Positions 377 through 34,930 are shown, counted from the stretch's first letter. The stretch is 64,000 nt of DNA from Cenococcum geophilum (GCA_050273025.1 CP158635.1:13020001-13084000); one strand, 5' to 3'. Translations and numbers: made by a program. Notes: generated by a model not told the origin, from the letters alone.

Positions 377-480
377 CCCCACAAAGATTAAGGTCCTACT
401 ACTTTTTCTATTTTTTAACATTAACCGTCTACGCCTTGCCCTATATTTCTTACTATAGCTATCCAAACTTCTTTATAAAA

Positions 481-7108: not shown

Positions 7109-7239
7109 GAAATTAATTTTAGCCCCTATCTATAAGTTAGTTATAAGTAGAGTAAAGAATAGTATTACTTTAACTATTTTAAAGATTAAATTCAAAAACT
7201 AATTTAACTATATTATAACTAATTTTAGGAAATTTACTA

Positions 7240-8960: not shown

Positions 8961-9104
8961 TATATTTTACTATTTTAGGCGCCTAATAATTCTAGTAGGT
9001 TTTACCTAGGTCATTAATAAAGGCTAATCTTGGGTCAACTTTATAAATAGGACTTTATAGTAATAATACTAACTTAGGATTTTTAACGGTAATTGTGTTA
9101 TATA

Positions 9105-11608: not shown

Positions 11609-14600
11609 TTGTGTTATATATAAGAACTATATAAGTTAGTAGAGGTATGTTTTTATTAGAGGTATATTATAAGGTATGTTATAAGTATAAAAGGCAACTA
11701 GTGGGGGTTGGTAATTAAATTAAAGTTATAACTAATAAGAGTAAGAGCTAATAAGTAACTGTTAAAGTAGGCTATAAGCCGAAAATAGGAAACTTGTTTT
11801 TAAATTAAGTTATTTTAATACCATTTTAGACTAGAAGTATGGTTGGCTAGGTATTAAGCGCCCGGTTAGTTTGGCGCCTTTTAGATAATTTTAAAAAACT
11901 AATTTCTGTAATTTAAATGCTAATAACTTAAACTTTAACTTTAGAGGAAGCTAGATATCTAAATTAAGTAGAATACTTGCTACTATGCTCTAATATAGTT
12001 TATAGGATAATTTCACTTCTAGCCGCCTGGTAGCTAAGGCTTTGCTAATACGCGTATAAAATATTATATAGTAAGTAACTTAGTAATTGCCTTGCCAGAA
12101 TAAATGAATTACTATAGTTTATCTATTTTTTACTTTGCTGGAATAGAAGGAAGAAGCTTTTTAAATATTAAGTAATTTGCCCGGCTAAATGGAGCGTAAA
12201 GTTACTACGAATTAATTAGATCTTTAAGATATATAGGAAATCCACTTATTAACCTCGGTATGCTTATGATCCCTCTAATAGAGATCGCAATACTTTTGCT
12301 TAAGGTATTAACCATAAATTACACGCGTTGTTTAAATGGGGGATAACCCTTTAGTACTTTTAATATATAAGCTATTAGATAACTATAAATAAGGAACCAA
12401 GATAATGTAGTAATAAGCTAAGAGTATAAGTATTAACGCCTACTAGGAGGGAGATTAAGTCGGTAAAATATATAACTAACGTACTTATAACGGCCGTTAA
12501 TATACTAAGGGAGATATTTAAGCTTAAAGTAGAACATTACAGCGTATATTAAGTCTATAATAATAGGAATTATAGAACTTAATTTTATATATTCCGTAGT
12601 TTAGCTTTTTAATTCTCCTACCATAGATAGGTTATTAAGTGGAGGTTTAAGTCCTTGGAGATAAAGATTAAGACGATAATATCTACTGTGGTACTATACT
12701 AGGATAGTATAAATAAACCTCTTTTAAGCTTCCTTACTGTCTAGACTCCGTATAAAGCTTTTAAAGAGTCTTAGGTAAAATTAATCTGTGACTAGAGATT
12801 AAGTGCTAGCAGCTATTAGTATAGAGGTTGTACCGGTCCCTAATAAGAGAGCAAAGTTAGGCTTGCCCTTTTTAGGCTATAGGAATAGACTTTCTAATCG
12901 GGCAATAATAATTGGATTATTATTTTAAAGGCCCCTATTCTAAAAAGTACTAAGGTTTTTTACTACTTTGGGTTTAAAGAACCTTTTTAATTTAGTATTA
13001 AATTATAGGATATATAACAGATTAGCTAACTAGGGTATAGCAGAAGTACAACATGCCCTAAAATATATTAGCTTAATTCTAAGCATCCCCTAAACTAAAT
13101 GTACGCTTTACTAATAGATATATTATGCTGTGAATAATTAGCCTAGATTAAACTGTACCCTATATAATTAGGACGCTACTGTATTGAATTAGGAAAGTAC
13201 TTTGCTTACCAATCTCCTTAGGTTGCTTACCCCTATTATAATTGCAAAACAAATAAGGCTGTAACTCCTTGGCAGTTGTCGTTGTTACTATAACTCTAGT
13301 ATTGTTTGTTAGTGGATTAAATATCTTTAGATAGGATCTAAAAGCGGCTTTAAAGCCTGATTCGATAGCGGTAAGGCTGTACTAGCTATCTTGGGCGTAG
13401 CTTAGCATTATCTCTTATAACCTAGTAAGTAAAGTAGATCTAAATTTTCGCTACTTAAAGGTCTTGCTTACTATATCCTTAAATCTCTATAATAACTTGG
13501 CTACGCTCTACCTTAAGAGACTTATCCCTATAGCGGTTATCCTACCTAAATACTAGATTAACTTAAGTTCTTATTAATAATATTTTATTTTTACGTATCC
13601 GTAGAAGTGCTATAGATAAGGTTAAAATGTTCTTGTAGTAAATATCTAAAGTTAGATAGTGCCTGCTTAATATATATTAGAAAGATAAAAGATATAACTC
13701 CCCTTATACCTCCGCCGTCTATGCTTAAAATATGGATACTAGCACTAGGTGGTATAAATTAAAAATTAGACGCTCTATAAGGTAAGGCACAGAGGATATA
13801 ATATAAAAGATAATAGCTGTATTTCGTTAAGGATAATTGTCTTCTATATGTTTTAATGTATATATTATAGAGTATATAACTGCAGTTTAATACCTTTTTA
13901 GGCATTTGCATTAGATAATAGAAGTAAAACTTATGGCTTCTAAACTCTACTACTTAGGGCTAAAGCCTTGCGATATTTTGCGTATAAATTTAGGATGCGG
14001 TTAATAAAGAGTTTAATTAAAGTATTTAGAATATAGACTGGAAATTATCTAGAACCGCTAATAAAAATTTTGTGTGGATACTCGTATTTATAGTATAGTC
14101 CTATATTATAGAGATATAAGCGTTTAAGAAATGCTTTAAGAAGATAAAAGTAGGAAGAAAGTCTATAATTAGTATTAGTTAGTTAGCTGGATTTAGGGTA
14201 GGGGTTATATAATAAGAACCTGGGGGATAGCTTAATAGGATTAACGCTAATGCTACTAATGGGGCGATAAAGTGCTATAGCTATGCCTAAGACGGTATAT
14301 GCTTAATAAAATCTCTAAGGCACGCCAAGAACCCCTCGTTTAAGAAGCTATAAGGTTATACTGCTTAGACGAATAAGAATAGGGCGGTAATAGTGGAGTA
14401 GAAGTGCTTTAAAGCCAAGCTTAATAAAGCCTTAAAATGCTTAAAACGGAATTTAACTTAAGTGGATTGGCGTAAGACGCGTGCTTCTTTTAATATAAAA
14501 AGAATTCGCTTTTAAAACGCGTATAAACATTTTACTAAGCTTATAGACGAATTTAGTTTAAGAATACGGATACTATAAAAATGAGCCTTTAGATCTATAT

Positions 14601-14905
14601 TTACGTCTTTAGCTTTACTATATTGCTTAAAGTTCTATATTATTTTAGTTATTAAAGCTAAAGACTTTAATTCAGCAATATTTTTATTAAAGGTTAGTAA
14701 GGATATATTAAATACTAGTAGAATATAGGGGAGTATAGGGAGATTGGAATTTGGAGATTTAATAGCTTGCTAAGCTATAAGCTTAGATACCTCCCTTAGT
14801 CCGCCTAGATCTATAATAAAATAGTAAACTATATTGGAGAAAGGTAAGAGTACTTAATTATATAATAACGAGCTAAGTATTTTATAACGTTTTAAAGGCT
14901 ACTAC

Positions 14906-15141
14906 TGTGGGAGGGTACGACCACTCTCAGATGGGAAAGTCACAGTGCCGTCTGTCTGTCGGTCGGTCGGTCAGTCGGTCGGTCGTCAGTTATAATCAAT
15001 CAGTAGGAAAGCAGTCAGTAAGAAGAAAGGAAAGAATGTATTCCCGGTAGGTCGTGATAGAGAGAAGGAGAGAAGCCAAAGGCTCGATATATACAGGAAA
15101 ATGCCAAGGCACTAAGTAGTGGCCTATTTTACCCCACTACA
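14906..15141 (-). repeat. 3' LTR (236 bp)
   Basis: TGTGGGAGGG...CCCCACTACA, direct repeat of 20922-21157, adjacent to the PPT. Confidence 0.93.
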
Positions 15142-15299
15142 TACCTCCCCCACCAAGAACGTTGTCCCCTAACGTTTTATACTATAGAAGAATAGCAAAA
15201 GCAAAATAGAAAAAGGAAAGCATATCCCTAAAAGAACACAGGTAACCTTATCCTTAGCCTTCCTATAGAACCATCCTATAGTGTCCTTCCTACTAGCGG

Positions 15300-16850
15300 T
15301 AACCAAAATAGCCGTAAACCAGAAATGATAATAGCAGTAGCAGCAGTAATAGTAATGGTAGTAGTAATGGTAAAAGGCAGATAGTTAACGTAGTAAGATA
15401 AAGCAAAACGGTCAGTAATAGAACAGTTAGTAGAAGAACTTGGTTTGTATAATAAGCAGTAGGACATCTAGCAGCAGAACTTTTAGTAGCAGAAATCTCG
15501 GTAGTAGGACGGCCAGTAGCAGTCAGTCAGTAGCAGTCGGTTAGCGGCAGTTGGTTAGAACAGTAGCGGTAAAACAGTCGTATTGGTGGAACAAAACGGT
15601 GAAACAGCAGCAGTAGAATAGCTAGTTAGAATAATAGTAGCAGTAGCAGTAGCAGTAGAACAGTCGGTTGGCGGCGGTTAGTTAGAGTAGCGGTTAGTAG
15701 AAACTAGAACGGAATAAGTCAGTTGGAATAATTGGGCGTTATAGCAGATCCAGCAGATCTAGTAGTAAAATAGATCTAGCAACGGTACAGATCTAGAATA
15801 GTAAAGACAGAGCAACTGGTTAAGACAGTAGGGACAGAACAGTCGGACGGAATAGCAGCAGCGGCGGCGGTAGTAGGGTAGTCGATTAAGACGGCAGAGG
15901 CTATAACCCGACTCGATTATTTGGCTGCCGTTTAATATCAAAACTCTACATCTAGCTCTGTATCGGTCTGCATCTAGCTGTATATCTGGCTGTGTATTAA
16001 TAGCTCTGTATTGTATACCCTGCGCCCGTGTCTGCGTCCGCGTGTATGCATATATGGCTGCCTTGACTGCTAGCCGAAGACTGTCTAATTAGTCGGCGAT
16101 GATATGCTGCAACTAATCGTTCGGTCGTTTAATTAAGGTAAAAAGTTAGCCTGGTTAAAGGCTCTAACTGTCCTAACTTGCATGCGGAGACGGCGTTTAA
16201 ACTAATTAAGATTTAATAAGGCCCTGGCTTAACTTAAGGTATCCTCTGCTGCATATAAGGCTCTGCATCCGTAGGCAGCCGATTAAAGCTTCTATGTAGA
16301 CGTCCAGTTGGTCAAGGCTCCGCATCTACTGTTTAATTAAGGCTTCGCATATATAGGCGTCTAGTTAAGCTGCCGTACTATTGTCCAATCAAGGCTCTAT
16401 ACCTATATGCTTACTATCCGTAAACTCTGCGTACGACTCCATATAAGACTCCGTGTAAAGCTCCGTATCTATATCTATAGAAAAGATTGTTCTAGGTAAC
16501 TAATCCGCGGGCGTTAAGACGGGCGGCAATTAATCTATAAGGGGAGGGGCAGTTAAGGGAAGAGGCTCTCACAAAGGCTCTAAAACATTAATTAACCGTG
16601 TTTTTAATGTTCTTCCGGCCATATACTGGTTTCCTAATTAATCTAACTTAACTACGGAGACGGCGTCTAATTAATTAAGATTTAACTAAGGCTCTGGCTT
16701 GACTTAAGGCATCCTCTGCTATATAATTAATTAAGGCTTCGCATCCGTAGGTTCTGCATTTATAGATAATTAATTAAGACTCTGGCTGTGTAGTCGTTCT
16801 GTTAACGCTTTTATATCCATACAGTCGATTAAGGCTCCGCATCGTATAAT
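15300..16850. repeat. Low-complexity and internally duplicated 3' region of the LTR element
   Basis: CAG/TAG/CGG-rich runs at 15300-15900. A ~70-bp block CGGAGACGGCGT...GGCATCCTCTGCT occurs at about 16185-16256 and 16655-16725. Many AAGGCTC(T/C)GCATC-type units. Confidence 0.7.
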
Positions 16851-18099
16851 TAGGGCTCTTAGTGTCCACTAGACGTCTAATCTAGAGGCCTGTCTTAAGA
16901 CTTCCTTCTTTACGAGCACTAACGGTAGCTTTCTCTAAACCACTATAATAGGCCTAGTGCTTTTCTAGGACGTCCTTAATAGCTACTTCCTTCTCTTTCT
17001 GGGCCGTCTTTGCACTTAGCTTCCTTAGTGCATCCTTAGGCTTTTACAGCTGCTTCTTTATTCCTACTACTAGCAGTATACTCACGTATCCTTAATCTTC
17101 TTCCGGCTTAAGAACCCTCTTAGGATTGTCTTCTACTTTTAGTCTCTTTGTCGCTGTCCTGCTGACTCCATACTTTATCTAAGTCGTCCTTCAAAACCAT
17201 TCGGTGGCAGCTTCTTAGCTATTATAACTACCTCCGTCGCATATCCCTTAGCCTTATATCCACAATGCAGCCCTTTATTAGATAACCTCTAAGGAAAAGC
17301 GCTAGTTCCTATACGTCTAATTCCTATTCCCCTTGTAATCCCTAATAAGGTCCTTTACTAGCTTAGCCAGACACGGCTTAGTCCTGTCTTTAGTCGCATA
17401 AAAATAGCTTAGGCACGCGGTGCTTTGTCACTAATATTGTGCTGCTGCCTTTATATAAGTCCCTTCCTTATCGCGGTGTCCGTTCTCGTCTTATAGCTAG
17501 CGCAGTACTGAATTCAGATAGAGGTTGCGAAGCTGCGATTAGCTGTTATTTAAATAAGGAACAAAGTCGGCCCGGTTAAAGGCTCTAATTTAACAATATT
17601 TAACTAATTTAATTTAGGGACGAGACGTGCTAATATCGAGGCTCTGGCTTGGTTCTTTAGCTAGCCGTAGGTCTGCATCTATATACGGCTGATTGTAGCT
17701 TTTATGCAGTTATTCGATTAATGCTTTACATATAGCTCTGCGTCTAGCTCTACATCATATAACCGGCTCTGTATCTATGCAATTAATTAAGGCTCTTGGT
17801 GCCGTTCTTATTATACAGCTAGTGTATTACCAAATTCCAGGGGCGGTGTAGAGTTTTGCCGGCTTTACTGCTAAATAGACCAATTAGGATTTTCCGTGCC
17901 CGGCATGGAAAATTGCTATTAGCTCAGTAACAGGCGGTGAGCTAAACTAACATCTCTGCAGTAGGTTGTCTCGATTAACGCGTTAACGTATCACAATTAG
18001 GAAAGTAAATAAGAAAGGAGCTTTAGGAAATACTGTAATTAAGCAGACAAATAGAAATCTTTTATACGTCACCTACGTCCCCTCCCCCACCTTAGAACT

Positions 18100-20750
18100 T
18101 GACTGTCCCCTAGTCGAACATCCTACCCCTCAGCGGAGCCTGTTGCGAAGCCTACTGCGACGCCTGCTGCGGAGCCTGCTGCGAAGCCTGCTGGTCAAGC
18201 GTCTATCTCCAATAACCGTCTCCAAGGGTCGGACGATTCTAATAGTCCTCCCTAGCTTCAGCTGTCTTCTTTATAGGCTGTGACCTAATCTGTATATAAT
18301 CTCCTAGTTGTACATTGTTCTCCTACGGCTCAGTAGCTGTCCTACTGTCTCTAAAGATTATGCGATTTTGATAGTAGTCCCCCCAGTTTATACTTTTCTC
18401 GTTACTAATCTTTAGCGCTGTTCCGTTATAGAAGGCCCGCTACTACGTTTATTCTTTCCTTGGTCTGTCTAGGTCTGTCCCTTAGTATATATAGAGCCAG
18501 TCCTTAATACCCTTTAGTCGTCCTTTATTGCCGAGCCATGGAAGTATAGGTTTAGGCCGCTTACATGTCTTAGCTACTAGTTTTCCTTAATTAGACAGAT
18601 ATACAAGTCCTTACTAAATAAGATCCCTAAGCCCTTAGCATTCGTACTCGGTGAAACGGTAACTCCCTCTATATCTAAAATAGGTCCGTCGGCCTTGTCC
18701 TCACGTGCCTTACTAACCCCATATATCCTGCTGCGGTTATCTAAAGGCAGTAGAATCTTGCGGATATCGGGAGTCCTGCGGATATTAATAATCCTATAGA
18801 GGTTAAGAGTCTTACGGGATAAAGGGAGCTCGGGTACTGTTCTGCCAGTCTTTATATCCTAGTGCTGGGCTATATCCTTATACTAGGTCTTAAACTATAG
18901 CTTAATCTAATAGCGTTGTAAACCTGTCTAGGTCCTTTTAGATTTGGTTAAGAAACGGCATTGACTATATAGCTGCCGCAAGCTCCGTCTTACTTAATTT
19001 TTAACTTAACTGGCTTGCCATTTCGTCCATCTCCTAGTCTACGGTGGGTGGTAACTACTACTGCGTTAGGGCTCCTCCGTGTATACCTGGTCTTACTAGG
19101 TCCAGAAGTCTTCCTTCTCTCCTACGGTTAAGCTCCTTAAGTTCTAGGTCCGTTTCCTGGCTGGCTTGACGGGCGTCGGCTGTCTTATTTAGCTAAAAGA
19201 TCGTAGGTGGTCGAAGGGTAGTATCTTTACTTATAACTGTCTGCTAATTATAGAACTGCTTAACTAGCTAACAAAGGCCCTAATCCTTGGGGTCTATTTT
19301 TAATAGACGATCTGCGCCCTTATATAAACTAAGTCTGTCCTTTATAGCTTTTTACAGCTAATAGAAGTTAAAGGACGTTCGTCTATCTAGGTTAGCTCCC
19401 GTTTTAGCTATAGTGTATCTTTAATATTTAAGCGGAAGTCCTTTTATAAACTAGTATCCTCGCTAACTATTATCCAAATTACTAGCTTTAGTAGCCTTTT
19501 AAGAGATTAATACGAACTATCTATAGTACTTACGTATACTATTTGGCGGATTGTCCCTATACTGCTATATATAGGCTTCTAAGAATTCTACCGTTTCTAT
19601 TTGTTGAAATTGGTTACTTCCTTAGTATTCTACCCTAAGCTTTCTTATAAGCTCCGTCTAGTTACTAGCTGTGAATTTAGGCAAGCTTCGGATCTATATC
19701 CCTATCTAGTAATCGTAGTACTCCAGAAGGCCCTAGTGCTTTTCTTTACTTATTACATGGTATTAGACGCATAGCCGTTCGTACTGCTCGATAAACTATA
19801 ACATATCCTGCCCTGTAAAGTACGGAGTTCTAACGGTTCCTAGGGCTAGCATAGGCTAGACCATAACGTAGACCTTGTCTTAAGCCGTCGACCGCTATCT
19901 ACGTGCATCTAAAGCTTCCTTAGGAGCTTATAGGTGGTCCTTATGGCTCTTATCCTTTGTCTGCTAAGGGCTATCGGTCCTAGGTGTCACGGGTGAGCGC
20001 TACAATAGGTCTACTTGCATGGCCGTGGTCTTAATAGAGGGTGTCCCAGATGGCTGTCCTGGTGTTGGTTTATACTCAGTAAAAGAAGTATAGGCTTCGG
20101 TTCCTTCTGGCTGCTTCTTAACGCCTAGAGGTCGGTCTTCATAGGAGAGCACAGAATCGCCATCTTCTACTACTGCCGGGTCTCGATACGTCCGTCTGTT
20201 TTGGCCTGCCGTTACTCCGCGCGGTAGGGTGCTGCTAAGCCTTACGCTTTCGCCTATATCTACTTCTTTATAGAACGCCTCTAGAGCTGCCGTAGATACA
20301 ATCCGGATGACTTAAAAGAAGATAAAGCTAAGCTAGAATAGGAAGCTTTCGAGGGCAGATCTAATCTCGTGTACTTGCGACCTTGCTTGGTATTGTCTCT
20401 GTTCTTAAAGGGCAGTACTAACTTCCTCTGCCGCCAGATGTCTTAGATCTCGTTTCCATCTAATTGACTAGCTCTTAGCTACCTGTTATCTCTGCATCTT
20501 CAACAAAGCTCTAGCCATGCTCGTGCGCGCGCGGGTGGTAAGATATCGGGTAACTCCGACTGCCAGTCAACGTCGTCTAATTAGCCCGTTGGTTCGCTTG
20601 ACGTCCTTATACATAACTTTCTAAGACCTTTGCCACTCCTTTTTGCTACTATTTAGCCTGTGCGTTAAGTCTAATATCTGTCTTTTCCGCTGTCTTTCTG
20701 TTTAGGGACTACCTGGTTCCCCTTGCTGTCCAATACTGCCTAGTTCTCTG
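18100..20750 (-). pseudogene. gag: gag-like ORF of the LTR element
   Basis: Reverted translation PMPAPGTVGTPYFTGQDVSQFIEQYERLC...LPEYCD...WIRSLPEF...DWTELVRKLRVEY (about 19620-19855) and a zinc-knuckle-like CFGCGGSHRFTEHECQGL.DLIQQGLVH (about 18600-18690), as in fungal gypsy Gag. No protease, RT, RNase H or integrase motif seen downstream. Confidence 0.75.
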
Positions 20751-20896
20751 CTTTCGTCTCGTCTATCTAGCTGGCAGTTCTTCTACAGCTAGTCGTTCTT
20801 CTACAGCTGGCGGTTTTTCTATAGTCGTGGTATGTTCCTATGCGTATATAGTTGTGTATAGAATGCCAGACTTCTAATCTGAAGAGCTTGCCGTCA

Positions 20897-20914
20897 TCCC
20901 TACGTGGAATGCCA
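20897..20914 (-). promoter_or_regulatory. Putative tRNA primer-binding site
   Basis: Minus strand reads TGGCATTCCACGTAGGGA 7 nt inside the 5' LTR. TGG is complementary to tRNA 3'-CCA. The tRNA was not identified. Confidence 0.55.
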
Positions 20915-20921
20915 TAAAATA

Positions 20922-21157
20922 TATGGGAGGGTACGACCACTCTTAGATGGGAAAGTCACAGTGCCGTCTATCTGTCGGTCGGTCGGTCGGTTAGTCGGTC
21001 GTCAGTCGTAATCAATCAGTAGGAAAGCAGTCAGTAAGAAGAAAGAAAAGAATGTATTCCCGGTAGGTCGTAATAGAGAGAAGGAGAGAAGCCAAAGGCT
21101 CGATATATACAGGAAAATGCCAAGGCACTAAGTAGTGGCCCATTTTACCCCACCACA
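20922..21157 (-). repeat. 5' LTR (236 bp)
   Basis: TATGGGAGGG...CCCCACCACA, direct repeat of 14906-15141. Confidence 0.93.
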
Positions 21158-21783
21158 CTACTAAGAGATTTTTCTTATTACCATTTCCCTACTGTTATAG
21201 GAAAGAAGCAACTATAATAAAGAATAGTTTTAAAGTTCGTAATTAATAAAAAGGATTAATAAGGTATCTTTGTAGGTTTTAGGGTCTTTCTAAAGGTAGA
21301 TTTAATTATGCGTATTGGCTAGAAAATTTCTATTTATAGTATCTCCTAGTAGGTATTATAGAACTGTAGACTTTGTTTTTTTACTAACTAGCGTAATAAA
21401 TAATAGGCTCTAATGCTGGCTCTCTTCTAGTATTAAGGACTTAAAAGCTTATTAGTACTTAGTAATAGCACCTTTACTTTTAAAATCGACAGTTATTTAA
21501 GGAATTTTTGCCATTAATAAAAGCGAATAAGGCGGAGGAGTAGAGCTTAGGGAATTCTTTAAACATTTGTTTATATATATATATTTAAATATTTACAGTT
21601 TCCTAAAAATTTAATTTTGCTTTATACCGCCTAATACAGCTTTATAGTCTATAAGATGGTATAATTAGAATACTAAATTAAATTTTTTGTTTTAATATTT
21701 GGTTCTGACTAATATTTTTTATAAAAGAGCTTTAAGTCTCCTATATTAGTATTAAGCTCTTAGTATAAGTAATAGCTCTTCTT

Positions 21784-24700
21784 ATAACTATAGATAACTT
21801 TAAGCTGTCTATACTTAAGGCGCGGAACTACTTAGGTATAGCGAAAATAAAACTTAGGGCACTTAATTTTGACTATCCTCTTATGCGTAAAAAACATCAG
21901 TTACTATCTAAAAAGAACGTCCGCCGCCTTAGAAATATATTTAAAAGAGTAGGTTATAAAAGGCTAGAAATTTTTTTTTATTAATGCTGTTATAGACGAT
22001 GCGGCCCTTATCTTGTTACTAGCCTTTTTAGGTCTTAATAAATAACGTTTTTATCAACTTTAGGAGGGTAACTTAATACCGTTTGTTAGCCTAAGGAGTA
22101 TAGACTGCCTTAGAGGCTTATATCGTATTAAAGCTGCTAAAGAATTTTTAGACAATAATAACTAGTAGTAGATAGTAAGGCTCTTCTCTAAAGGTAAGCG
22201 CGTTTACTTAAGTGTTTTGCTATTCTAGCTAAGAATCTATTATAGATCTCCTATAAACAGCCCTTATAAGGATAATTAAAGAATACTTAAATAAACAGAA
22301 ACCGTTAGATGGGGAAGTGTTTCGTAAAATATAATACTATTATCTTAAGAATAACACGAAATTAGAGAATAGATAGTAGGCTCTATTAGATAGGTCCAAG
22401 CCAAATAATCTAAAACAACTTCTTAAGAATTCCTACTTTGCGATAGCATTTAATGCCCTAGTAGAAATGCAAGGCCTATAGGAACTAATTTAGATTACAG
22501 CGCTATATAGATTCTTAATACTTAAGTATAATAAGGTATATTATTCTCTACTTGCTTATAGAGAGTGCTAGCTAAATAAACTAGGAACTGCTTTATGGAC
22601 TTAACTATATCTCTAAAATTTGGAAGAAGATTATTAGCTATAGTGATATAGATTTACCCCTATTAGTAGTAGATATAAACACCGTTTAAAATCTAGAACT
22701 ACTTATACTAGCTATTTTAAAAGCTAATATAGATTGTATTACCGCGCTAATAAAGTCTAGGAAGATTTTCTTAGCTATTTTAGACCAGTTAATAAGAGAC
22801 CTTATTTTATAGAACATTTCTTTAGTAGATTATTTAATTCCTTTATTAAGAACCTTTTTTAAGAACCTTAAATACCTAGAACCTTGTTGTATTATACTAA
22901 AGTATTTAATTAGCAATAAAATAAAACAAATAATTTGTTAGAGCCTTAAAGCTTGCTATTATTATCCTAAAAACTTAATTATACCGTTCTTAGAGATAAG
23001 CTAGTGGTGCTGCTTAAAGCGTGGATTTATAGAAGACTGATAGCTTCGCTATACACTATTATAGGCGTTTTATCTTCGTAATTTCCTATATATAACTTAA
23101 TATACTCCCTAAAAAGAAATTAGAAAAGAAAAGCCTACTGTTAGGGAGCTAAGTCCAGCTCTATATTAAAACCTTAGCTATTTATCTATTACTTAAGGCT
23201 TTTGGACTTCTATAGCTCTTATACTTAAGTTATAAGATTTTAAAAGAGAACTTACTGTCTAACTATTATAAAAAGCTAATTCTTGATTAAAGTCTATAAA
23301 TAAGTAAAAAGTTACGGCTATTACCTTAGTTCTTAAGTAGTTAGAAAATTAAAATAACTATATTTAATTACTACACTTTACTAGTTTTAAACCCCTCCCC
23401 ACTAATAGAAGGTATAGAAGGCCCTTTAATAATAATTATAAGATGGATAACGATTGCCTTTTTATCCTATATATTTATAGGAGTAAGGTTTATCCTAGTG
23501 CCAACATTATACCCTTTTTTATAAAACGTAACTTTATTATAACCTTATTTGGATTTAAGTCATTTAAGGTATACCTAAACCCCTTTTTTATATATGAACT
23601 TAACTAATTAAGAGAAGGATGTATATTTTACCTTAAAAACTCAGTTGCTATTAATCTAAAATACTATACTAATATAGAGTCCTACTAATGCGTATAACTG
23701 TACCTATTATTACTTAGTTAAAGAACTATAAATTAAAATAAACTAATTAAATTCATAAATTAAAGAGTTAGAAGATAGTGAAATAAGTTTAAAAACTACT
23801 AGGAAGTTAATAGCTTCCACTTTTATAATAATAGAGAATTAATTAGTAAAGGCAAAATCTTAAATTAGGGATTTTAAGAAAGAGCACTCTCTAGTTAGTA
23901 ATAAGCTAGAAAAAATAACAGCTTAAAGTATATTATTTAAGATTTCTAAAAAGAGGCTGGAATCCCAGTTTATATAATAGCAGTTAATACTTAATACGGC
24001 CGTAGCTAAGAATAAATATCTTTAAAGCGTAATAGTAGAAAATAAATATTAATAGGACTCTATAAAAGGCAATAGGAAGGATACCTAAATTAAGCAATTA
24101 TAATATAATCTGGAGGCCTAGATAGCTATAGTCTTAGAGCTAAATAACGGCCTAAAAAAATTAAAGGATATTTAAGAAGAAATGCGGAATAAGTTATAAA
24201 TAAAAGAAAGAGATTATAAAGCGCTCTAATAAAAGATAGAGAAGGCAAGAATTAAAATAAAAGAAAAAAGTATAGAGTTAATAGAAGTATCTAATGCTTT
24301 AAAGAATAAAACTACTACTCTAACCTAATATCTAAAGGTAATATAGATAGAGACGAAATAAGTTATAGAAGAAAATAATAACTTATATTATGTACTACAA
24401 TTAGCTAGGCCTAAGAAGGAAAAAGTAGTTTAAGAGGTGGTATTATAGGCCCAATCTAAGCATCTAAAAGCTCTTAAGTTATTAAAGTAAGTGCGCTAAC
24501 GGTAAGAAGAGAAAAGACTATATTAAGCATTAGAGTTAACTAAGTCTTAAAAGAAAAAAGCAGTTTAAGAGGCGGTGGATTAGCTAATAACATAAGCCTA
24601 ATTTAAGCATCTTTAGGTCCTTAAATTGTTAGAAAAAGAGCATAAGCGTTAATAAGAGTAGTTAAAATAGATAGTAGAGACTAAGTATAAACGCTAATAA

Positions 24701-25500
24701 CGTAAATTATAAAACTAGGCCGATTAAAGTATAGCGGTGTATTAAGGCTAAGTAGAATATATATTTTTCGCGGCGAAGATAAAGATTGTGGGCCTTAAAT
24801 ATAATATATAACTTAATAATAACCTTATTAACTAAGGTTTTTAAAAATTAAAAGAGCTTAAGAAGTATAAAAAGCAGCTAGATTTAGGCTTTATTACTAA
24901 AGCAGATATATCTAATAACCTTTAGATTATTGTAATTTAATTAGATAAGAATGGTGGCTTTTAAAGAGTAGAGTTCGCGTATAAGCCAACTCAGGCGCTT
25001 AAGGGCTTTAGATCCTTTCTAACTAAGTAAGTAGTATAATATAAAAAGATATCCTAAAGAATAATAAAGTTTCTAGCTCCTAACCTCACCGTTATAACGT
25101 CTTATAACCCTAAATATTTTTTAAAGGCATTACTATATAGGCACTAAAGAAGATATTAATGCTTTTGCAAACTAATATAGGAGTATATTTACTATAAATA
25201 GCAATATTAGGCTTCTTAGGAGATCTAGGTTAGGGAGAAAACGATTATATAATAGATTTAAGGACGTATTACTCTTAAAGAGGCAACTCCGTTTTAATAG
25301 GAGGTCTATATAGTAGGAGATACCCTTACTTTGGTATATGCCTATAACTATTTTAATAGAAATAGAGCGTTTTCCTAAAATATTACTTTAGCTAGTACCT
25401 TCTATAGAAATAGAGCGCCTCCCTAAAATGTCACTTTAGCTAGCGCTATACGCGCCATTTAAGGTTTAATTAGGGGAAGAGGTTTATTATTTATATAATC
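21784..25500 (+). pseudogene. DUF3723-type gene with long coiled-coil C-terminus (Starship auxiliary gene), RIP-inactivated
   Basis: Reverted translation YLGIAKIKL.ALDF...KNVRRL.NIFE.VGC.RL..FINAVID; CLRGLHRIKAAKEFLD..DQWWIVRLF; GTAAG intron at about 22193; EEYSNEQKPSDGEVFRKI..YH......ENRWWA.L; AFDALVEMQGLW. K/E-rich heptad region at about 23700-24750. Confidence 0.82.
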
Positions 25501-25581
25501 CTAATAATAAATTAAATATTTAAATTAAATATTTAATTGCTTACGCTATAGTAAAAATATTTCATTCTGCTCACAGTTACA

Positions 25582-27370
25582 ATGCAATCGCCCGCTAAAG
25601 AAACCTTTGAAATAAGCTTAATAGAGCTCCTACGAGCTCCAGAGGACTCCAGAAACCCTTCCTATTAACACTACATACCCCAATTCGGCGTTAGTGGAGG
25701 TATACGTGGTGTTTTCTAGTATATAACCCCTAAAGCCGGACCACAACAAACAAATAAGCCCCCACCCCTAACCCTAATGACCCTAACTAAACAACGCGCC
25801 CTTTAAGAACGCGTCTTATAGACTATATAAGCTGTAGAACAAACCTAGCAGGTGCTATAGAAACGATCTTTTAATGTAAACGAGGAGCGTACTACTATGC
25901 TCTCTTTCCTTACTACTGCGATCACAACCCTTTGGGTAGCCTTCGCCACGTTAGCGGAGCTTATCTGGACCTAAGGAACCTAGGAATAGTATATTTAGGA
26001 CATAAAGGCGATCTGGACAGATATTGGCGCCCTCTAGAGGGCCGTAATAATGGCTACGAAGAGCGGACCAGCGTCTATAGGCCCGCTATCGTACGTATAC
26101 GTCGCTACCACTATACCTATAATGCCCTAAGCTATAAGATAAGTTGCCTATAAACCTATAGAAGTAAACGAGATTATAATCTGTATAGGTGACGCTGCTG
26201 ACCGTAAGGAAACCTTAAAGTAGAATAGCTAAGCCCTGGTATATAAGCTCTAGGCCGTAGAACCCCTAAACACCTACAAGATATAAGCCGTAAAGAAGCT
26301 ATAGAGTGGCAATGTTAGGGCGTACGTTATAGATAAAGATATAAAAGATAGATTGCTATAAGAAACGGGGTGGACAAAGGTCCTAGGGCGCTCTACTATA
26401 CCAGCTATACCGCTAGTACTAATAGAGGTCCACGCGGTGCCTATAAGCCTCGCCACTTAGGGCCTAGAGGCTAAGTAGACGATAGAGGATATAATAAAGT
26501 AGAATTGTACTATAGCAGGGCTTATAGTAGAAAGGCTGGCGTAGAAAAGGCCAGGAAGAGTCTGGACGGGAGAAAAGGTCCGATTGTTACTTATTATGGG
26601 CGTATAGTTAGAAGAGGTTATAAATACGCTATTTAATCGGGGCCTCTTCTTAGGAGGAGACCATTACCTAGTTATAAGGCACGAGACGACATTTCTAGTA
26701 ACGTAATGCTTTAAATGCTAAGGCTTTAACTATATAGCTAAGAGCTATAGGAGAGAGGCTAGATATGGACGCTATACTGGGTAATATAACACTAGCGAGT
26801 GCGTAGGGGACCTACCTAAGAAGTATATTAACTGTAAGGCAGACCATAAGGCATAGAATAGGGCGTGCGGCGTCAAGCGGACGTAGTAGGAGAAGGCTGC
26901 AATAATTAGGGCCTTTACGCCGATATACTACGCGGGCACCTATAAGGCGCCCGAGAATGGATAGCAACCACAATTATAATACGAGATTACCACTAAAGAG
27001 GCATCGTAATAAACTAAGAAAAGGAAGCTAAAGGAAACAACTACGTGGGAGAGCTCTGTATAGGCAGAGGAGGCCCCCTAGAAGGTTGGCCGACTATAGA
27101 CCATCGACTACTCTAGAAAGGAAAAGGGCCAGAGAACCCTCCAATTAACACTTTAAATAGCGCTAAATGGCAGTATATACGCCCTAATTTAAGTTCCGGC
27201 AACTTAGGAGCCCCTATAAAGTATAGAGCTTAATGCGGAAGTAGAAGCAGAAGCCTAGATCCGGAGAGAGGCGTCTAAAGGTACCGAAACTGCGTTGTAA
27301 GGGAGCGAATAGACGCTAAAGGGCACTGACTTAGCTAACTTAGAGGCCAGCATAGATATCTTATATTAGG
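25582..27370 (+). pseudogene. LINE ORF1 (gag-like, three CCHC knuckles)
   Basis: At about 26700-26870: QCFKCQGFNHIAKSC, RCGRCAGQHNTSEC, KCVNCKADHKAWNRAC after reverting RIP changes. Confidence 0.85.
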
Positions 27371-30300
27371 ACACCGGAATCCACTTATAATTATATAGTA
27401 TAATACTAATAACAGCAAAAATGGCGTACTGCTTTACTTTTTATAAAAGGTAGAGTAGGCGGACCCCTAGCCGGATATACTAGCTATCTAGGAGCCGTGG
27501 AGGAAGGATTAAGGAAATATAATATATATTATAAAGTCCTACTACCTAGTATATGCGGGAGTCGGCAATATAAGGGTTTATTTCTATGTAAATAAGGCTA
27601 TTAATATAAATAAGTAGGCGCTTATGTACTACTTAGCGGACGCATATACGATTAAGCTAGAGGGCCGTAAGCAGACTATTTAGATCTATAATATTTACAA
27701 CCCCTAATAGACGAACAGTAGCTTCCGCGTATTACCAGAGCTACTAAAAGCCGAAGGAGAACATATACTATTAGGAGACTTTAACCTACACTACCCCTTC
27801 TAGGGGGGTGTAGTAGTGATAAGCGTAGATAACGCGGCGGATAACCTTATCCGCGCTATAGAGGCAGCTGGCCTAAGCCTAGCCATTAAGGCGGGTATGG
27901 AGACGTGGGTAAAGGGTATGTTAAGGAGCACGCTGGACCTAGTATTTACCTCCCCCTAGATTATAGATAGACTGCTATAGAGTTAAAGGCAGGACTGTTG
28001 GTATATAGGGTTTAACTACTTCCCTATTACTATAGAGGTAGACATAGAGGCGCTAGAGGGGCCTCTACTACCTAGAAGACCACTATAAAAGAAGGCTAAT
28101 TAGAAAGAGGTGCGAAATAAACTAAAGGGCCAGCTCTAACCCCTATATAGTTTCCTATATAACATAAGAGACAAACTAAACGCACTAGCAGAGGCTATAC
28201 ACTAGGCGATTAAAAACACTATAGTAAAGATAATACCTAGCGCGTGGCCCTCGCCGTAAGCCTCTAAAGCGTAGTCGGAGAAATGCATAGAGGTAGTAAA
28301 GGAAACCCAGCAGGCTTCCTGGGCGTAAAAGGCCTTTTAGTTAATACCTAATTGGATTAACTATAGAGTCGCATATAATAAGAAGAAAAGGGTAATCCGG
28401 CGAGAGGCTAATAAGCTATAGAAACACACCGTTAAGAAGCTAACGAACGACCCTAAGGGAGTATAGAGGTTGGTAAAATGGGCGTATATAGCGGACGGGA
28501 AGCCGAAGGCCCTACTACAGTTCCCTCCTATTAGCAGACTAGGAGAAGAGACCCTACACTATAATAATAAGGAGAAGGCCGCTATCCTTACAGAGTAATT
28601 TTTCCTGCTGCCTATAAAGGTGGACCTTAGTAATATACCGGGTTTTATATACCCAGAGCCGAGAACTACAAAGGAAAAAGTTAAGAAGGAGGACATTATT
28701 GCGGCTCTAAAGGGGCTTGCCCCCGATAAGGCCCTAGGCCTAAAGAAGATTACTAATTAATTTCTTAAGATATACGGAGAGCAGCTGGCCCTAGTACTAG
28801 CTAAGCTCTTTAGCAGCTGTATAGAAATTAGATACCACCTAAAACCATTTAAAAACTCTATTATAGTAGTCCTCCGGAAACCATAGAAGCCGTCCTACTT
28901 TATAGCAAAGGCCTACCAGCTAATTACGCTACTTAACACTATTAGGAAGCTATTTAAGAGAATAGTAGCCAATAGATTGTCTAGAATTGCGGAAGAGACG
29001 GGTATACTACTGGCTAGCCAGATAGGAGTAAGGCCGGGGCACTTAACATAGATAGCGCTAGAACTACTAACTCAACAGGTGTATACGGTGTGGAGGAGCA
29101 ATCCAAACCTAGTAGTATTATTATTTAGCCTTAATATTTCCGGGGCCTTTAACCAAGTCTCCTATAAAAGAATAATCTATAATATAAAAGCCCAGGCCGT
29201 GCCCTACTAGATAGTATAGTTTATAAAGTCCTTCCTTAAAGACCGAATAACAAGGCTCTTAATTGGAGGATATATGGCGCAAATAATATAGACAAATACT
29301 GGCATACCCTAAGGCTCAGCGCTATTACCAATCTTATTCCTCTTTTTTACCTATACGCTCCTACCGGAGCTATAAGGGGGTACTACTATAGCGTTTAGGT
29401 TCGTTAACGACTTAAATATACTAACGTATAGTAAGACCATAGAGGAGAACTATAGAGCCCTAGAAAGGGCGCACAAAATATATACAAAGTGGGCACGCTG
29501 ACATAGGGTAGTGTTCGCCCTAGAAAAGTACTACCTTATCTATTTTATAAGAAGCTATAAGAAGTTTAATATAAAGGCTATAGCTAACATACGTGGATTT
29601 ACGGAAGGCTTAGTTAGCAACCTATGCGTACTAGGGGTATAGGTTAACTTAAAGCTCAAATAGGGACCGTATATTAACATCGCTAAGGCGAAGACGGTTA
29701 TATAAATAGCCGCACTAACCTAACTTACAGCCTCTATATAGGGCGCCTCCTTTTAGAAGGCGCGGACGATATACTCCGCCGTAGTCCGACTAATAATCTC
29801 ATACGGATATAGTACCTGGTACTTACCACCGGAGTGGTTAAAGCCTAAGGAAATAAGTAAAGCTAAGCTGCGCTAACTAGGCGTAGCGCAGAACCTATAC
29901 CTCTATACTATTACGGGGGCGTATAAATTAACGCCAATAGTAGTACTAAAATACGAGATGGGGTTTCCGCCGCTCTAGATGCACTTAGAGGAGCTAGCTA
30001 TAGCCTACGCGGAAAGAACACGGGAGGAGTAGGCAAGAGAATATATTAAGAGGGAGTGCAACACTATACAAACTATAATAGCCCACTAGCTCCGACCTAG
30101 AACGAGGCCACTAATACAGCCCACTAGAAGGGATAAGCTTAAGAGGATAGCGGCTGCTATTATAGGGATAGATATACGGCCGGCGGACCTATCTAAAGCG
30201 CAGTATAGGAAGAGCAGAAGGGCTAGGGTATAAGAGGCGTTTAAAGAGCAGTGGAAAAAGGAGTAGGAAAGGTACTAGAGTATACTTATATACTATACAA

Positions 30301-30710
30301 CGGCCTAGGCCAAACTATGGAATAAAAAGGTCCATAAACGCTACATAAGGCTTACTAAGATAGAGAGTATAATTAATACGCTGCTTAGAATAGAATATAT
30401 AGGACTTAATAGACACCTCTACTATTAGAAAGTACCAGGGTAACCAACTCCGGCCTGCCTATGCGGCTATAACTAACAATTAACAATACATGTAATAGTA
30501 TACTGCCCTAGGCATATTACTAGCCGGGCGGAAATATATTACCATACCGGAATATCCTTATATAGAGAGCTCCTAGCCAAGCCAAATGCTATAAAGGTAG
30601 TTGCGGACTAGTTTATACAGACAAACCTCCTACTATACCTCTTACTAGCTAGGGAGCTAGCTAGGGCGAAGGGAGGAGACTAGGAAGTACCTTAAGAAGA
30701 GGGATAGTAA
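27360..30710 (+). pseudogene. LINE ORF2 (AP endonuclease, reverse transcriptase, C-terminal CCHC; no RNase H seen)
   Basis: IQYNTN, DILAIQEPW and LLGDFNLHHP.W (endonuclease). KAPGP, Y.PI.LLNTIGKLFE, LDISGAFD, GIPQGS.LSPILF and FVDD at about 29400 (RT). CPCG...H...C at about 30455-30508. Confidence 0.9.
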
Positions 30711-30734
30711 ATTGCGGCAACGTTGCGGCAATTC

Positions 30735-30932
30735 GCCGAATATAGCAGAATACTACAGATATAGCAGAATTTGGCAGAATTTGGCAATATAGTAAAATTT
30801 AGCAGAACTTAGCAAGTTAGTAGAATCTAACAGAACTTAGCGAGTTAACAGAATTTAGCAGAACGCAACAAGTTGGCAGAATTTGGCAAAAATTAGTAAG
30901 TTAGTAGAACTTGGCAGAACTTAGCAGAATTT
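30735..30932 (+). repeat. 9-10-bp tandem repeat (TTGGCAGAA(T/C)) in the LINE 3' UTR
   Basis: About 20 degenerate units such as ttggcagaat, ttagcagaac, ttagtagaac. Confidence 0.85.
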
Positions 30933-31649
30933 GCACCGTTATAGCTACGGAGCTACGTACGGACTTTTATACCACCAGCCTTGCGGGCCGCTAGCCCTCG
31001 CCCTACCTAGACAACTAAACCAACTAGGATAGAACTTAGGCCCTAGCTATATACCCCACCGGACGGACCTAGGAGTACGCATTAAGATGGCTTTTCTATA
31101 GCGCCTTAAAGAGATATCAACTTGTGCTTAGCAGCTACTAATTAGAAGAGAGGCTATATAGGCTATATAATAGCAGAAGGAGAGGTTTTATCCGGCTATA
31201 GCTGCACGGTTTCCCTTATATATATATATACCTATATAGACCCGCTATATAGACCCTAACGGGAGCCGCAATAGCGTAATTAAATATCTTATCTTATAGT
31301 AAAAATATTTAAAAGGCTAGGTACTAGATTCTAATAATATAAAGGCTCCCTATCCTTATATATAATTTACTAGGTATTATATATAATATAACCTAAATTC
31401 CCTAAATTATTCTAATAATCTCTTTAAAGGCAAAGCGCCAAATATAGGTACTATAAGAGAAGGGAGAATTATATGGTTAGTTAAGTTCCGGCTTAGGCTT
31501 TAACTATAGTAGTAAGGTTATTAATAGGGATCCTTATATAGTATATAAAAAATCTTACTTAGAGGGGTGGGAGAGTTGTGGTTACCTATATTATTATAGT
31601 TAGGTAATGCCTAATTACTAATAGGGGGTAATACTTCACTATAGTGGTC

Positions 31650-32167
31650 TATAAACTCTATCCTATTATAGTAAATAGATAAAAACTATTCTAATTAATT
31701 AATACTTTTAATAGGGGACGAGTAAATAGGCTCGCTCTTAACCCTAATATTTAGATTATAGTAGACCTTACTTAGAAATAGAAGACGTTTTAAGGAGCTT
31801 CGGCTAAATAGGGGAGTTTTATCCCCCTATAAGCGTGCTTCGGCGGCACTTTAATAATAGTAGGGAAATTTATTAATTGGGTTACTTTCCCTTTACTACT
31901 CTATATAAGCGTATAGAGACGGTAAATAAGAATAGTGCTTATAATCTCTTCTATAGAGGGAGGCTAAGAAGTTAAATTCTTATTAAATTAAAATATAAAG
32001 ATTTCCTAGTTCCTCTCTATAAAGATAGTAACTTTTATTTTAGGCACCAGTTAAGTAAGAACAAAAGCTTTCTTAAAAATGCCTTCTTATTAGGTTGCGA
32101 ATATTCGGTTACTGGCTTCTAAAGGTCCATATAAAGACGCGTAGGGTCGTTTTTTTAGGCAAGGCAT
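31650..32167 (-). pseudogene. Small MADS-box/SRF-like gene relic (copy 1)
   Basis: ATG at 32167. Reverted SNRIFATRQEGIFEKAFVL.QLVPEMKV.IFIERNQEIFIFQF..NSTSWPPSIEEI fits the MADS pattern F..R..G.F.KA..L..L....V.V.I. The 3' end is uncertain. Confidence 0.55.
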
Positions 32168-33234
32168 AGCATTAATACCCTTTTAATAAGATTTAAAGGT
32201 AGACGTATATAATAGTCTTTAAATAAAGTAAGACTAATAAAATAACGGTTTATAGTAATTAAAAGTATTCCTAGTAATATTTATATTTAATTCTACTAGA
32301 GATAACATAGACGGTATAGTATGTATATTATATGCAAGTTATACACCTTAGGGTATATTTAATAACTTTTTTAGCTAGGTTAATACCTAGGCGCAATCTT
32401 TAGGATATAAGCGCCTCTTCTAGACACTAAGATAGGGGTGCTTTCTACCTAGTAGAAGGGGTTCGTTTAGTAAGAAAGGAGCGTTACTAGATAATTAGCG
32501 TTAAATTAAATCCTAGGATAGTAAGAATAGGTTAAAAATATTATAAAGGGCAGGATTAATTAACCTAGTTATATTAGTATTCTACTAGTACCCCCCTTAA
32601 AACGGTAAGTACTAGCGGAATTCGCCTAGGTAGATTACCTAGGTGGCTTAAAATTACTAATAAAACTCGCCGCTATAAGCGTAATCGTAGTTAGCGTAAA
32701 CGCCTCTACCTAGCTAAATAAAACCTCCTTTTTAACTACTAAGACAACTAATCTACCTAAATCTACCTACGGCGTCAAACGGACAATATCCACTAGGCGG
32801 ATATTAATATTAGTAGCCTATTCGCGACTAGTGGACCTAGGTAGGCTTAGGTAGCTTTTTTAAAACGCCTACTTAATAGAGCCTACCTAGCTAAGTAATA
32901 GTTATTAAATATGCCCTTAGCTAAAAAAATAAGTAGGGTAAAGTAAGCTACTAGTTCTATATTTAGCGAGCGGCTAGTTTACTAATTAGAGTTTAACTAT
33001 TTTATAGCGTATTAATTAGACCCTAAAATAGCTTTTTACTTAAATTTTAGTTCCTAATTATAGCTTCCTTAATTTTCTTTTAATACCCGCTCTTATATCA
33101 AAGCGCTAAAATAATATCTCATTATAGAATTTATTAAAATTTATTATTTTTTTAATAAACTTATTTCTTTTAATAAAGAACTAAGCACGTCTTTATAATA
33201 CTTAACCATCCTATAAAATTCTTAGGGAAAGAAA

Positions 33235-34930
33235 ATAAATATAACTACTATTTACGTCGTTTCGTATAGCGCAATTATTACCATCTTCTCTATTTAAAGA
33301 ATTTCCAAACTTATTAGCTCTTAGGCTTATAAAAAACTCCTATTAAATATCCAGAAATAGACTCTATATAGTTTAATTATTTCTAAGTAAAAAAGCACAT
33401 TAAATATTAGTCTTTTAGCTGCATTTTATATCTTTCTTTACGCAGTTGCAAATGTTATTGGCTCCGTTTTAGGCTTATCTATAGGTATCCAATTTACGCA
33501 GCGTTTAGGATATCTATTCGCTATTAACGCAGTTCTACTATTTCTTAAGGGCAGAACCAATTTAATTAGCGATAAAGTCCTACGCCTGCCAATATATAAT
33601 TATAGCTTAATTTACCACTAGATTGGTTAGGTATATATCCTAAAAGGAGTACTTTATGCACTTCTAATAGTATCTTTAAAGTATTCGCGTATGGTAAACG
33701 TTAAAATTATAGTTTATCTAAAACTCCCTTATTCCTACTAAGCTTAATTATAAATAGCTTATTATATTTATTTCCGCTATTAGCCTTCTATCTTTTTTTA
33801 TTATTTGTTATTACGCTTATAAAATTTTCCTCCATACTCACCTTCTTCTTATATTAGCTTTAATGGGAATATTATAGTTATATATTAGACTAAAGCGGAG
33901 CTATCCTATAGCTTATCTCTTAGTCGCATTATTACTTTAAGTTCTTTAGAAAGTACTTTAGGCTGGATTTATATTATATCGAAATCTAGGATTAGGTTTT
34001 TAAGTATTTATAGTTCACTATCCCCAAGAAGGTAAGGATTTAGAAAACGCCGTTTAACTTAGAATTATAGTAAAACGCCCCTAGAAAATACTGCCAGGGC
34101 AATTTATCTACATTACTATTCCGTACAGTTTCGGCTTTATTTAAGCACATCCTTATATAATAGCATGGATCTTAGAAAATAAGACTAGTATTAATAAAAC
34201 TATAGTACTCCTTGTTTAAACTAAGTAAGGGTTTAGTAGCAGACTAAGGTTATATAGTAAAGCAACTCTAGTTATATTAGATAGACCGTATAGAGGTACT
34301 TAGTACTACTACCTAAGCTAATATAATAAGGTGCTGTTTATAGTAAATGGTATCGGAATTATAAGCCATTTATTATTAATTTAATATCTCCTAACGGCAT
34401 ATAATAATCAGACTGCCCATATATAAAGGCTATTATTAGTATAGTTCTTAGAAACAAAAGGTAAGAATTTATAGTATACTAGAAAAATAAGGGTATTGCT
34501 AACTATAAAGACCAATATAAATAGGCAAAAGAGTTTATCCTAGCTCTATATAATATAGACCACCGCTAGATTTTTACTATTTTCATTTTTTTCCTATATA
34601 AAGTTGCTAAGTCTATAGAAGAACTAAGTAAAGGGGATAAGATTCTCAGAAAGAGGCTTTATAAGCTTTTATATCTACTAGATATAGTATAGATTATTAA
34701 CTAAGAATAGTCTACCGAGGCGGGAAATATAATAATATTAGGTAAGTTTCCTTTAAAAGGTAATAATACTTTTTAATTTAACGGCCGACAGTTTATGGGA
34801 CGCCTAGGTTTAAAACCTATATAAGAAAAGCCCTTCGCTTAAACATATATAACATTATACTCCTTAGTATAGACTTTTAGCCTAATAAGACACCGGCGAG
34901 TTAGGTTTTAATAATTAGGTATATCTCTTA
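33235..34930 (+). pseudogene. Ferric-reductase/NOX-like transmembrane gene (Starship FRE type), RIP-inactivated
   Basis: INAVPLFLGGRTNLISD...YSLIHHWIGWV...GVLH and YEIFLHTH (heme histidines). KRPWKILPGQFIYI...QAHPYMIAW and LDGPYG (FAD domain). VLFM.NGIGI.SHL...RRLSLVWFLET (NAD domain). Ends VCG....DFQP. GTAAG introns present. Confidence 0.88.

Follow-up and report, generated by a model that had tools for sequence, protein, structure and literature searches.

A RIP-inactivated block of PLP, DUF3723 and FRE pseudogenes, probably a Starship-type relic, in Cenococcum geophilum

A 64,000-nucleotide stretch of the Cenococcum geophilum genome (GCA_050273025.1, CP158635.1:13020001-13084000; hereafter the window, with all positions counted from its first letter) contains the remains of a patatin-like phospholipase gene (PLP), a DUF3723 gene and a ferric reductase gene (FRE). 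The block that these three genes form is very probably a fossil: one copy, inactivated by repeat-induced point mutation (RIP), of a repeat of ~11 kb that carries three Starship-associated families in a fixed order and orientation. A preliminary description, made from the sequence alone, had seen in this DNA a Starship auxiliary module in which PLP and DUF3723 diverge from a short spacer, a MADS-like gene and FRE follow as a second divergent pair, and the whole acts as a co-regulated unit. The PLP, DUF3723 and FRE genes of that module are upheld, as is their layout, which recurs in intact relatives; the MADS-like gene and co-regulation at the present day are not.

Three dead genes in RIP-mutated DNA

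RIP-affected DNA is recognized by a TpA/ApT index above ~0.89, a (CA+TG)/(AC+GT) index below ~1.03 and divergence between copies that consists of transitions only. The window is AT-rich throughout, with a GC content of 0.24-0.44 over the whole 64 kb, and it falls on the RIP side of both thresholds in 32 of 32 2-kb bins (TpA/ApT, 1.45-1.98; (CA+TG)/(AC+GT), 0.29-0.81). Its differences from two copies found elsewhere, L002 and L003, are likewise dominated by transitions. The 64 kb hold 77 stop-free frames of at least 60 aa, the longest being 165 aa, and three frames of at least 100 aa lie between 9 and 38 kb. A live gene anywhere in the window is impossible, and for this reason we read stops as X in every frame and relied on profile and homologue searches. 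All three genes of the trio are dead at this locus. They are placed as follows, from the left end of the block to the right:

12060..14905, minus strand: bulk of the PLP pseudogene, from about codon 122 to its 3' end, placed by tblastn of the relative P0003
21158..21514, minus strand: start of the PLP pseudogene (~119 codons; ATG, 21512-21514), placed by matches to P0009 and P0006
21515..21783, no strand: divergent PLP/DUF3723 spacer, ~225-270 bp
21784..24700, plus strand: DUF3723 pseudogene, with Pfam PF12520 over ~21977-23554 in three frames and a tail rich in Lys and Glu; 3' end approximate
33136..34930, plus strand: FRE pseudogene, transmembrane then FAD-binding domain, placed by an open reading frame (ORF) of L004 and by FAD_binding_8; ends approximate

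The preliminary description had a patatin gene on the minus strand with its start codon at 21514, and this gene is borne out. When 1.84 billion proteins were searched by phmmer with nt 12430-13788, 376 matched at E ≤ 1e-3, of which 94 reached E ≤ 1e-10 and 6 reached E ≤ 1e-30; the named relatives belong to Dothideomycetes and to one Geoglossomycete. A direct Pfam scan of the PLP translation missed Patatin (PF01734) at E ≤ 0.01 and again at E ≤ 10, but Patatin was present in 10 of the 10 phmmer relatives scanned, and the assignment of the window gene to PF01734 is thus indirect. Aligned by tblastn, P0003 covers nt 14853-13603 with its residues 127-525, nt 13546-13208 with residues 527-638 and nt 13056-12157 with residues 657-940. 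The 3' end lies by homology at ~12060-12121; no alignment supports 11775, the left limit given in the preliminary description.

Across 830 aligned PLP codons there are 38 in-frame stops. The Gly-rich oxyanion motif, DGGGIRG, is unbroken at nt 13719 on the minus strand. The serine motif, for which the family consensus (from alignments of intact relatives) is G-x-S-x-G, now reads S-T-S-T-D, and the aspartate motif, D-G-[AG] in the consensus, now reads N-R-G; these departures are of the G-to-A type. To judge from its motifs, the state of the gene fits an enzyme that was once active and is dead today.

The start of the gene lies on the far side of an insertion of 6.3 kb, and it was recovered through weaker matches. 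Residues 32-72 of P0009 and 44-100 of P0006 fall on nt 21400-21218 with 29.6 and 28.9 bits, respectively, compared with 20.4 bits for the best of 20 control regions. We accept the PLP start codon and the divergent spacer beyond it because the ATG at 21512-21514 shares the frame of this N-terminal homology and because residue numbering runs unbroken over the insertion, from ~120 on one side to ~122 on the other.

Alignments of P0003, P0006, P0009, P0010, P0016 and others describe a family of ~970 aa (950-990 aa in full-length relatives). Its members begin with a ~400-aa N-terminal domain, carry a conserved Cys/His cluster directly ahead of the patatin domain and end in a long C-terminal region. 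The main part of the window gene holds the N-terminal domain, the RING-like Cys cluster, the patatin domain and the C-terminal region. In a profile search of the PDB, the nearest structure to the patatin part was bacterial CapV (8zr9_A, E 1.5e-23) and the nearest to the Cys cluster were TRIM-type RING fingers (E ~3e-3); no solved structure matched the first ~400 residues.

For DUF3723 and FRE, comparison with relatives was again needed. Using an alignment of five intact lipases, we scanned metagenomes and recovered 80 loci, among them two intact relatives of the block, L001 and L004, and the two near-copies L002 and L003. DUF3723 is confined to these four among the 80. In the window, PF12520 (cut-off 22 bits) matches in three successive pieces, namely, profile positions 9-82 at nt ~21977-22193 (26.7 bits, E 2.8e-6), 87-178 at nt ~22257-22533 (56.3 bits, E 3.2e-15) and 180-508 at nt ~22585-23554 (133.6 bits, E 1.1e-38), which jointly span positions 9-508 of the 508 in the profile. 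The ~490 aligned codons contain 29 in-frame stops. The intact DUF3723 genes of L001 and L004 are split into ORFs at the same two profile positions as the window, and by this comparison the frame changes look like introns and not like damage. Since the ORFs of the relatives break at the same positions, point mutations suffice to account for the damage, and frameshifts are unneeded.

Beyond the profile match, the gene continues to ~24.7 kb as a tail with a Lys plus Glu fraction of 0.23. The matching region in L004 and L001 consists of long charged helical repeats, as read from their translations, from which we infer a putative coiled coil. A PDB search with the C-terminal tail of the L004 protein gave no match at E ≤ 0.1. 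The window tail also carries a tandem duplication of ~130 bp (24412-24641) that is extra relative to L002.

The plus-strand DUF3723 gene of the preliminary description therefore stands through its PF12520 matches. Its proposed start, at about 21784, is near the 21737-21767 predicted from L001 and L004, but the codon there is ATA. The divergent spacer of ~270 bp also holds, with homology putting its length at ~225-270 bp. A complex prediction with two pieces of the L004 DUF3723 protein and the PLP N-terminal domain scored 0.00, which gives no verdict either way on contact between the two.

The ferric reductase gene had been placed after a long interspersed nuclear element (LINE), and FAD_binding_8 together with alignment of the L004 homologue supports it there, on the plus strand. 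FAD_binding_8 (PF08022) scores 22.9 bits in the window against a cut-off of 22 (E 9.6e-5, nt ~34058-34259) and 17.5 bits in the L002 copy (cut-off 22). Ferric_reduct (PF01794) and NAD_binding_6 (PF08030) were undetected directly in Pfam scans of the window. Ferric_reduct is reached through the relative: ORF 550-1194 of L004 carries PF01794 at 37.1 bits (cut-off 28), and this ORF and the next exon align to window positions 33373-33660 and 33758-33991 with a joint E of 5e-20. As with Patatin, then, the direct Pfam scan missed the domain, but the aligned homologue has it. Two word-based homologue searches with FRE found no match among 899 and 1,358 candidates, and phmmer of the FRE piece against the PDB found none at E ≤ 1. 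The direct signal is slight; with the L004 alignment added, the sequence points to a genuine FRE gene on the plus strand, now dead.

Copies of the block and the elements inserted in it

L002 (10,213 bp) and L003 (4,751 bp) are copies of the block at the nucleotide level, with 86-92% identity to the window. The alignment of L002 spans PLP, DUF3723 and FRE and that of L003 spans PLP and DUF3723. Read along L002, positions 1-3649 correspond to window 34941-31295, 3634-4765 to 25562-24412, 4671-8156 to 24641-21157 and 8151-10054 to 14906-13003. L002 thus passes through two points at which the window is interrupted, with a single target site at each. The two interruptions are the following:

14906..21157, no strand: insertion of 6,252 bp bounded by long terminal repeats (LTRs), at 14906-15141 and 20922-21157; target site duplication CTAC
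25563..31294, plus strand: LINE (non-LTR retrotransposon) of 5,732 bp, with Exo_endo_phos_2, RVT_1 and a 16-bp target site duplication

The LINE had been recognized in the preliminary description as an interruption of the block, and it is confirmed by its domains (Exo_endo_phos_2, E 2.3e-8, nt ~27678-27972; RVT_1, E 5.3e-14, nt ~28890-29541), by an identical 16 bp at 25547-25562 and 31295-31310 and by the empty site in L002. The LTR-bounded element is a feature which that description did not include. It splits the PLP gene near codon 120; its two LTRs, each of 236 bp, are 95% alike and have TG..CA ends, and the 4-bp duplication CTAC stands at 14902-14905 and 21158-21161. It is absent from L002 and also from L003, which has a single clean target site. 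Pfam scans of the element in 6 of 6 frames at E ≤ 0.01 found no family, with no protease, reverse transcriptase or integrase among the results, and a gag-like reading was noted by eye on its minus strand. The element may be non-autonomous, or it may be RIP-mutated past recognition.

Between the window and L002 we counted 835 transitions and 39 transversions, and between the window and L003, 432 and 35. A transition bias of this kind between the aligned copies is what RIP leaves when it acts on each paralogue independently. The public sequencing runs that we compared with nt 21158-35000 agree: the DNA runs X1, X5 and X10 each contain many contigs, 95-99% alike, that differ by transitions over the block. 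One X5 contig joins 25546 to 31295, i.e., it lacks the LINE, and the LINE is covered ~2 to 30 times as deeply as the block. Without its insertions, the trio spans ~11 kb. Because the insertion-free copies differ almost only by transitions, the trio is, on these alignments, an ~11-kb multi-copy repeat and not core sequence. The prospect that the block might be syntenic core sequence, which the preliminary description had itself raised as grounds for doubt, has thus gone against core: what was found are multiple RIP-mutated copies.

The copies have irregularities of their own. The last 159 bp of L002 (L002:10055-10213) do not align to the window and are GC-richer by the look of the translation; either this copy breaks off within the lipase gene and abuts other DNA, or the contig is a chimera. 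L003 lacks ~72-89 bp (window 21495-21583), a stretch that takes in the start codon of the lipase and some of the spacer, and it lacks a further ~205 bp inside the lipase gene (window 12706-12910).

Layout in relatives and probable Starship origin

Six of the metagenome loci have a full-family PLP and at least 1.9 kb of upstream sequence. In four of the six, DUF3723 lies immediately upstream on the opposite strand; these are the intact L001 and L004 and the near-copies L002 and L003. PF12520 is found in L001 with E 1.1e-84 and in L004 with E 4.2e-68, and the two DUF3723 proteins are 34-62% identical to each other. From first Met to first Met, the PLP/DUF3723 spacer measures 284 bp in L001 and 202 bp in L004. 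In L004, FRE follows beyond DUF3723 and on its strand, as in the window. The order and orientation that the preliminary description proposed to check for conservation are therefore seen again in distant, intact relatives, the head-to-head pair in both and the downstream FRE in L004. Text passages on Starships from PMC9156397, PMC11162782, PMC10104507, PMC13562431, PMC12506042 and preprints do not mention this head-to-head arrangement with a downstream FRE, which may already show in the figures or supplements of these sources.

Judging from the layout, the spacer of 200-285 bp in the intact relatives most likely acts as a shared bidirectional promoter, from which PLP and DUF3723 would be switched on together. 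A tentative suggestion, which we would sooner doubt than adopt, is that PLP, DUF3723 and FRE are not just passengers that often travel together but an old module with a set architecture, amplified as one unit. The layout persists in lineages whose proteins are only 30-45% identical, and here it takes the form of an ~11-kb multi-copy repeat.

In text passages of PMC9156397, a degraded Starship is defined by at least three matches to DUF3723, FRE, PLP or NLR and no DUF3435. The block holds three of these four auxiliary families (DUF3723, PLP and FRE), and the window has no detected DUF3435. Since the three auxiliary families are present, multi-copy, RIP-mutated and not core sequence, the block fits this working definition, as far as those passages give it. 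The locus is very probably a RIP-killed Starship-type relic of known kind.

Several observations weigh against so reading the block. Six-frame Pfam scans of the window, nt 21201-21699 excepted, at E ≤ 0.01 to 1 found no DUF3435 (PF11917), the domain of a Starship captain; the absence carries little weight, because Patatin and Ferric_reduct, both of them present, escaped the same scans. No element ends and no direct or inverted repeats of an element were identified in the 64 kb. L002 and L003 end inside the block, so that the size and nature of the repeat past the trio are not visible from them. The support for FRE consists of one domain match barely over its cut-off and one intact homologue. 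More distant PLP relatives, L006 and L012, have no DUF3723 upstream, and therefore the PLP/DUF3723 pairing is not universal. Finally, the silence of the copy, described below, rests on one RNA run, one condition and part of that run.

Some of these observations are what would be expected if the trio were a repeat of other origin, such as a segmental duplication or another mobile element, that was never cargo of a captain-led Starship and whose families are simply common accessory genes. The lack of DUF3435 and of element boundaries in 64 kb speaks for such an origin, as does the fact that the recovered copies, L002 and L003, hold the trio alone. Yet the three families are published Starship companions in the passages of PMC9156397, their order and orientation recur in the intact and distant L004, and captain detection is insensitive under RIP damage. 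We regard a non-Starship origin as unlikely, though it is the alternative that survives best.

A quite different account would make the trio single-copy host genes, killed by RIP leaking from adjoining retrotransposons. RIP can spread into adjacent unique DNA, and the block is indeed embedded among LINE and LTR elements. However, independent copies at 90-92% identity that lack those retrotransposons differ from the window almost only by transitions, and several variants, 95-99% alike, occur within single DNA runs. Leakage is accordingly a very improbable explanation.

We can dismiss the idea that the block works here as a live, co-regulated unit: its start codon, gene order and orientation are preserved, but each gene has dozens of in-frame stops, mutation has altered the catalytic Ser and Asp motifs of the lipase, the 6.3-kb insertion interrupts the lipase gene, and a single RNA read, itself partial, turned up among 9.29 million records. 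The read came from run X21 and fitted nt 21158-35000 in part (1 of 9,287,142 records, ~12% of the run); the run is labelled "organism B" and also "same species label as X1" (organism A), and whether it represents the window's own strain is unsettled. The RNA result fits silence of this copy. With no open frames and no transcription seen, the copy has no live function today, and the co-regulation that the preliminary description had proposed fails at the present day on the stops and on that run.

For a RIP-inactivated, Starship-type repeat, we infer the following order of events. The unit would first have become multi-copy, most simply within a Starship-type element. RIP would then have struck every copy, with C-to-T and G-to-A changes that killed all three genes. 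Last, the LINE would have landed between DUF3723 and FRE, and the LTR-bounded element in codon ~120 of PLP.

The locus is in this respect a worked example of how a fossil can be dated in layers, with each of the two later retrotransposon insertions matched by an empty site in paralogous copies. The useful lesson is that PLP and DUF3723 stand head to head in distant intact relatives too. As proposed, the module would pair a CapV-like, RING-bearing lipase with a DUF3723 protein whose tail is helical and charged, both expressed from one bidirectional promoter, and FRE would follow downstream. Should curated Starships show the same layout, auxiliary genes whose role is unknown would become a two-gene unit open to testing. 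If the divergent pair works jointly, perhaps as a switchable device for membrane attack or fusion that serves element spread or host-cell killing, it would offer a handle on what auxiliary genes do.

Other features of the window and comparison with known systems

Three further parts of the block and its flanks were assigned:

31311..33135, no strand: RIP-mutated DNA without an assigned gene, from the DUF3723 tail to FRE; site of the proposed MADS-like gene
9102..11602, minus strand: 5'-truncated LINE fragment on the left flank of the block, RVT_1 E 2.1e-7
36198..39000, minus strand: longer 5'-truncated LINE copy of the same family on the right flank, RVT_1 E 3e-14

The MADS-like gene that was said to lie between the LINE and FRE finds no support. 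Pfam scans gave no family in the three minus frames of 31200-33150 at E ≤ 10 or in the plus frames at E ≤ 1, a PDB search of the interval at E ≤ 10 gave no match, and the L002 copy of the interval had none either. A tblastx comparison of 31.3-33.1 kb with the corresponding interval of L004 found nothing at E ≤ 0.01 and thus no conserved coding signal; the L004 interval holds a single low-complexity ORF of 189 aa (1748-2314) with no Pfam match and no match in the window. As a control of sensitivity, the same kind of search detected an SRF-TF-like relic at nt 57487-57570 on the minus strand (E 2.8e-5; 23.9 bits, below the cut-off of 26), which sits 22.5 kb outside the trio block. We therefore rejected an MADS/SRF-type (PF00319) gene next to FRE, as 31.3-33.1 kb contains no SRF-TF match, and the second divergent pair falls with it.

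The two flanking LINE fragments, compared over 9102-11602 and 36198-38676, are 85.7% alike, and they form a 2.5-kb direct repeat that brackets the block. This repeat was considered as an element boundary or duplication scar and was rejected, the two being 5'-truncated LINE copies. They are separate insertions, because the right-hand copy extends further 5'; by eye, its ORF text continues past 38676 in the minus frames.

Elsewhere in the window there are additional relics. A RIP-mutated DUF7492 relic lies outside the block on the plus strand at nt ~56354-57086 (E 2.6e-27), and an ankyrin-repeat relic lies on the same strand at nt ~58756-59155 (Ank_2, E 4e-11). The latter might be the remains of an NLR gene; Pfam scans found no NACHT or HET domain. 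The DUF7492, SRF-TF-like and ankyrin relics could be further dead cargo of the same large RIP block. At ~1000-2100 on the plus strand, a repeated Cys..Cys..His-type spacing resembles degenerate C2H2 zinc fingers by eye, and Pfam gave no such match at E ≤ 0.1. Arrays of 12-nt and 20-nt units occupy a locally GC-richer patch at 47.3-48.3 kb (47188-48310), and a 12/24-nt array at 51484-51834 can be read on the plus strand as a charged peptide in repeats. Across the window, Rfam and tRNA scans gave no matches.

Three known systems bear comparison with the block. CapV, the patatin phospholipase effector of the bacterial cyclic-oligonucleotide-based antiphage signaling system (CBASS) that is activated by cyclic GMP-AMP (cGAMP), resembles the fungal PLP in its patatin catalytic domain over ~200 residues. 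The fungal protein differs in its length of ~970 aa, its ~400-aa N-terminal domain, its RING-like finger and its long C-terminal region. We know of no nucleotide-sensing partner for the fungal PLP family. On the profile matches, the likeness is one of a single domain, and not of CBASS membership.

The reference Starship Voyager, as given in Table 2 of PMC9156397, has DUF3723 as mp102_11356, PLP as mp102_11357 and FRE as mp102_11352. Compared by gene numbers alone, DUF3723 and PLP are consecutive and FRE is four genes off, the same neighborhood as in the window, L001 and L004. Voyager is an intact element with its captain, whereas the window has no detected captain.

There is also a likeness in kind to the degraded Starship and Derelict regions of Macrophomina phaseolina and other Pezizomycotina that are described in passages of PMC9156397 (Gluck-Thaler et al. 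2022). Like the block, these regions carry DUF3723, FRE and PLP without a captain, and like it they occupy a repeat-rich accessory region and occur in several copies. The two differ in their state of decay: on the account in those passages, homologues of Derelict cargo can be placed in trees, whereas the window genes have all been destroyed by RIP and the block has been split further by a LINE and an LTR-bounded element.

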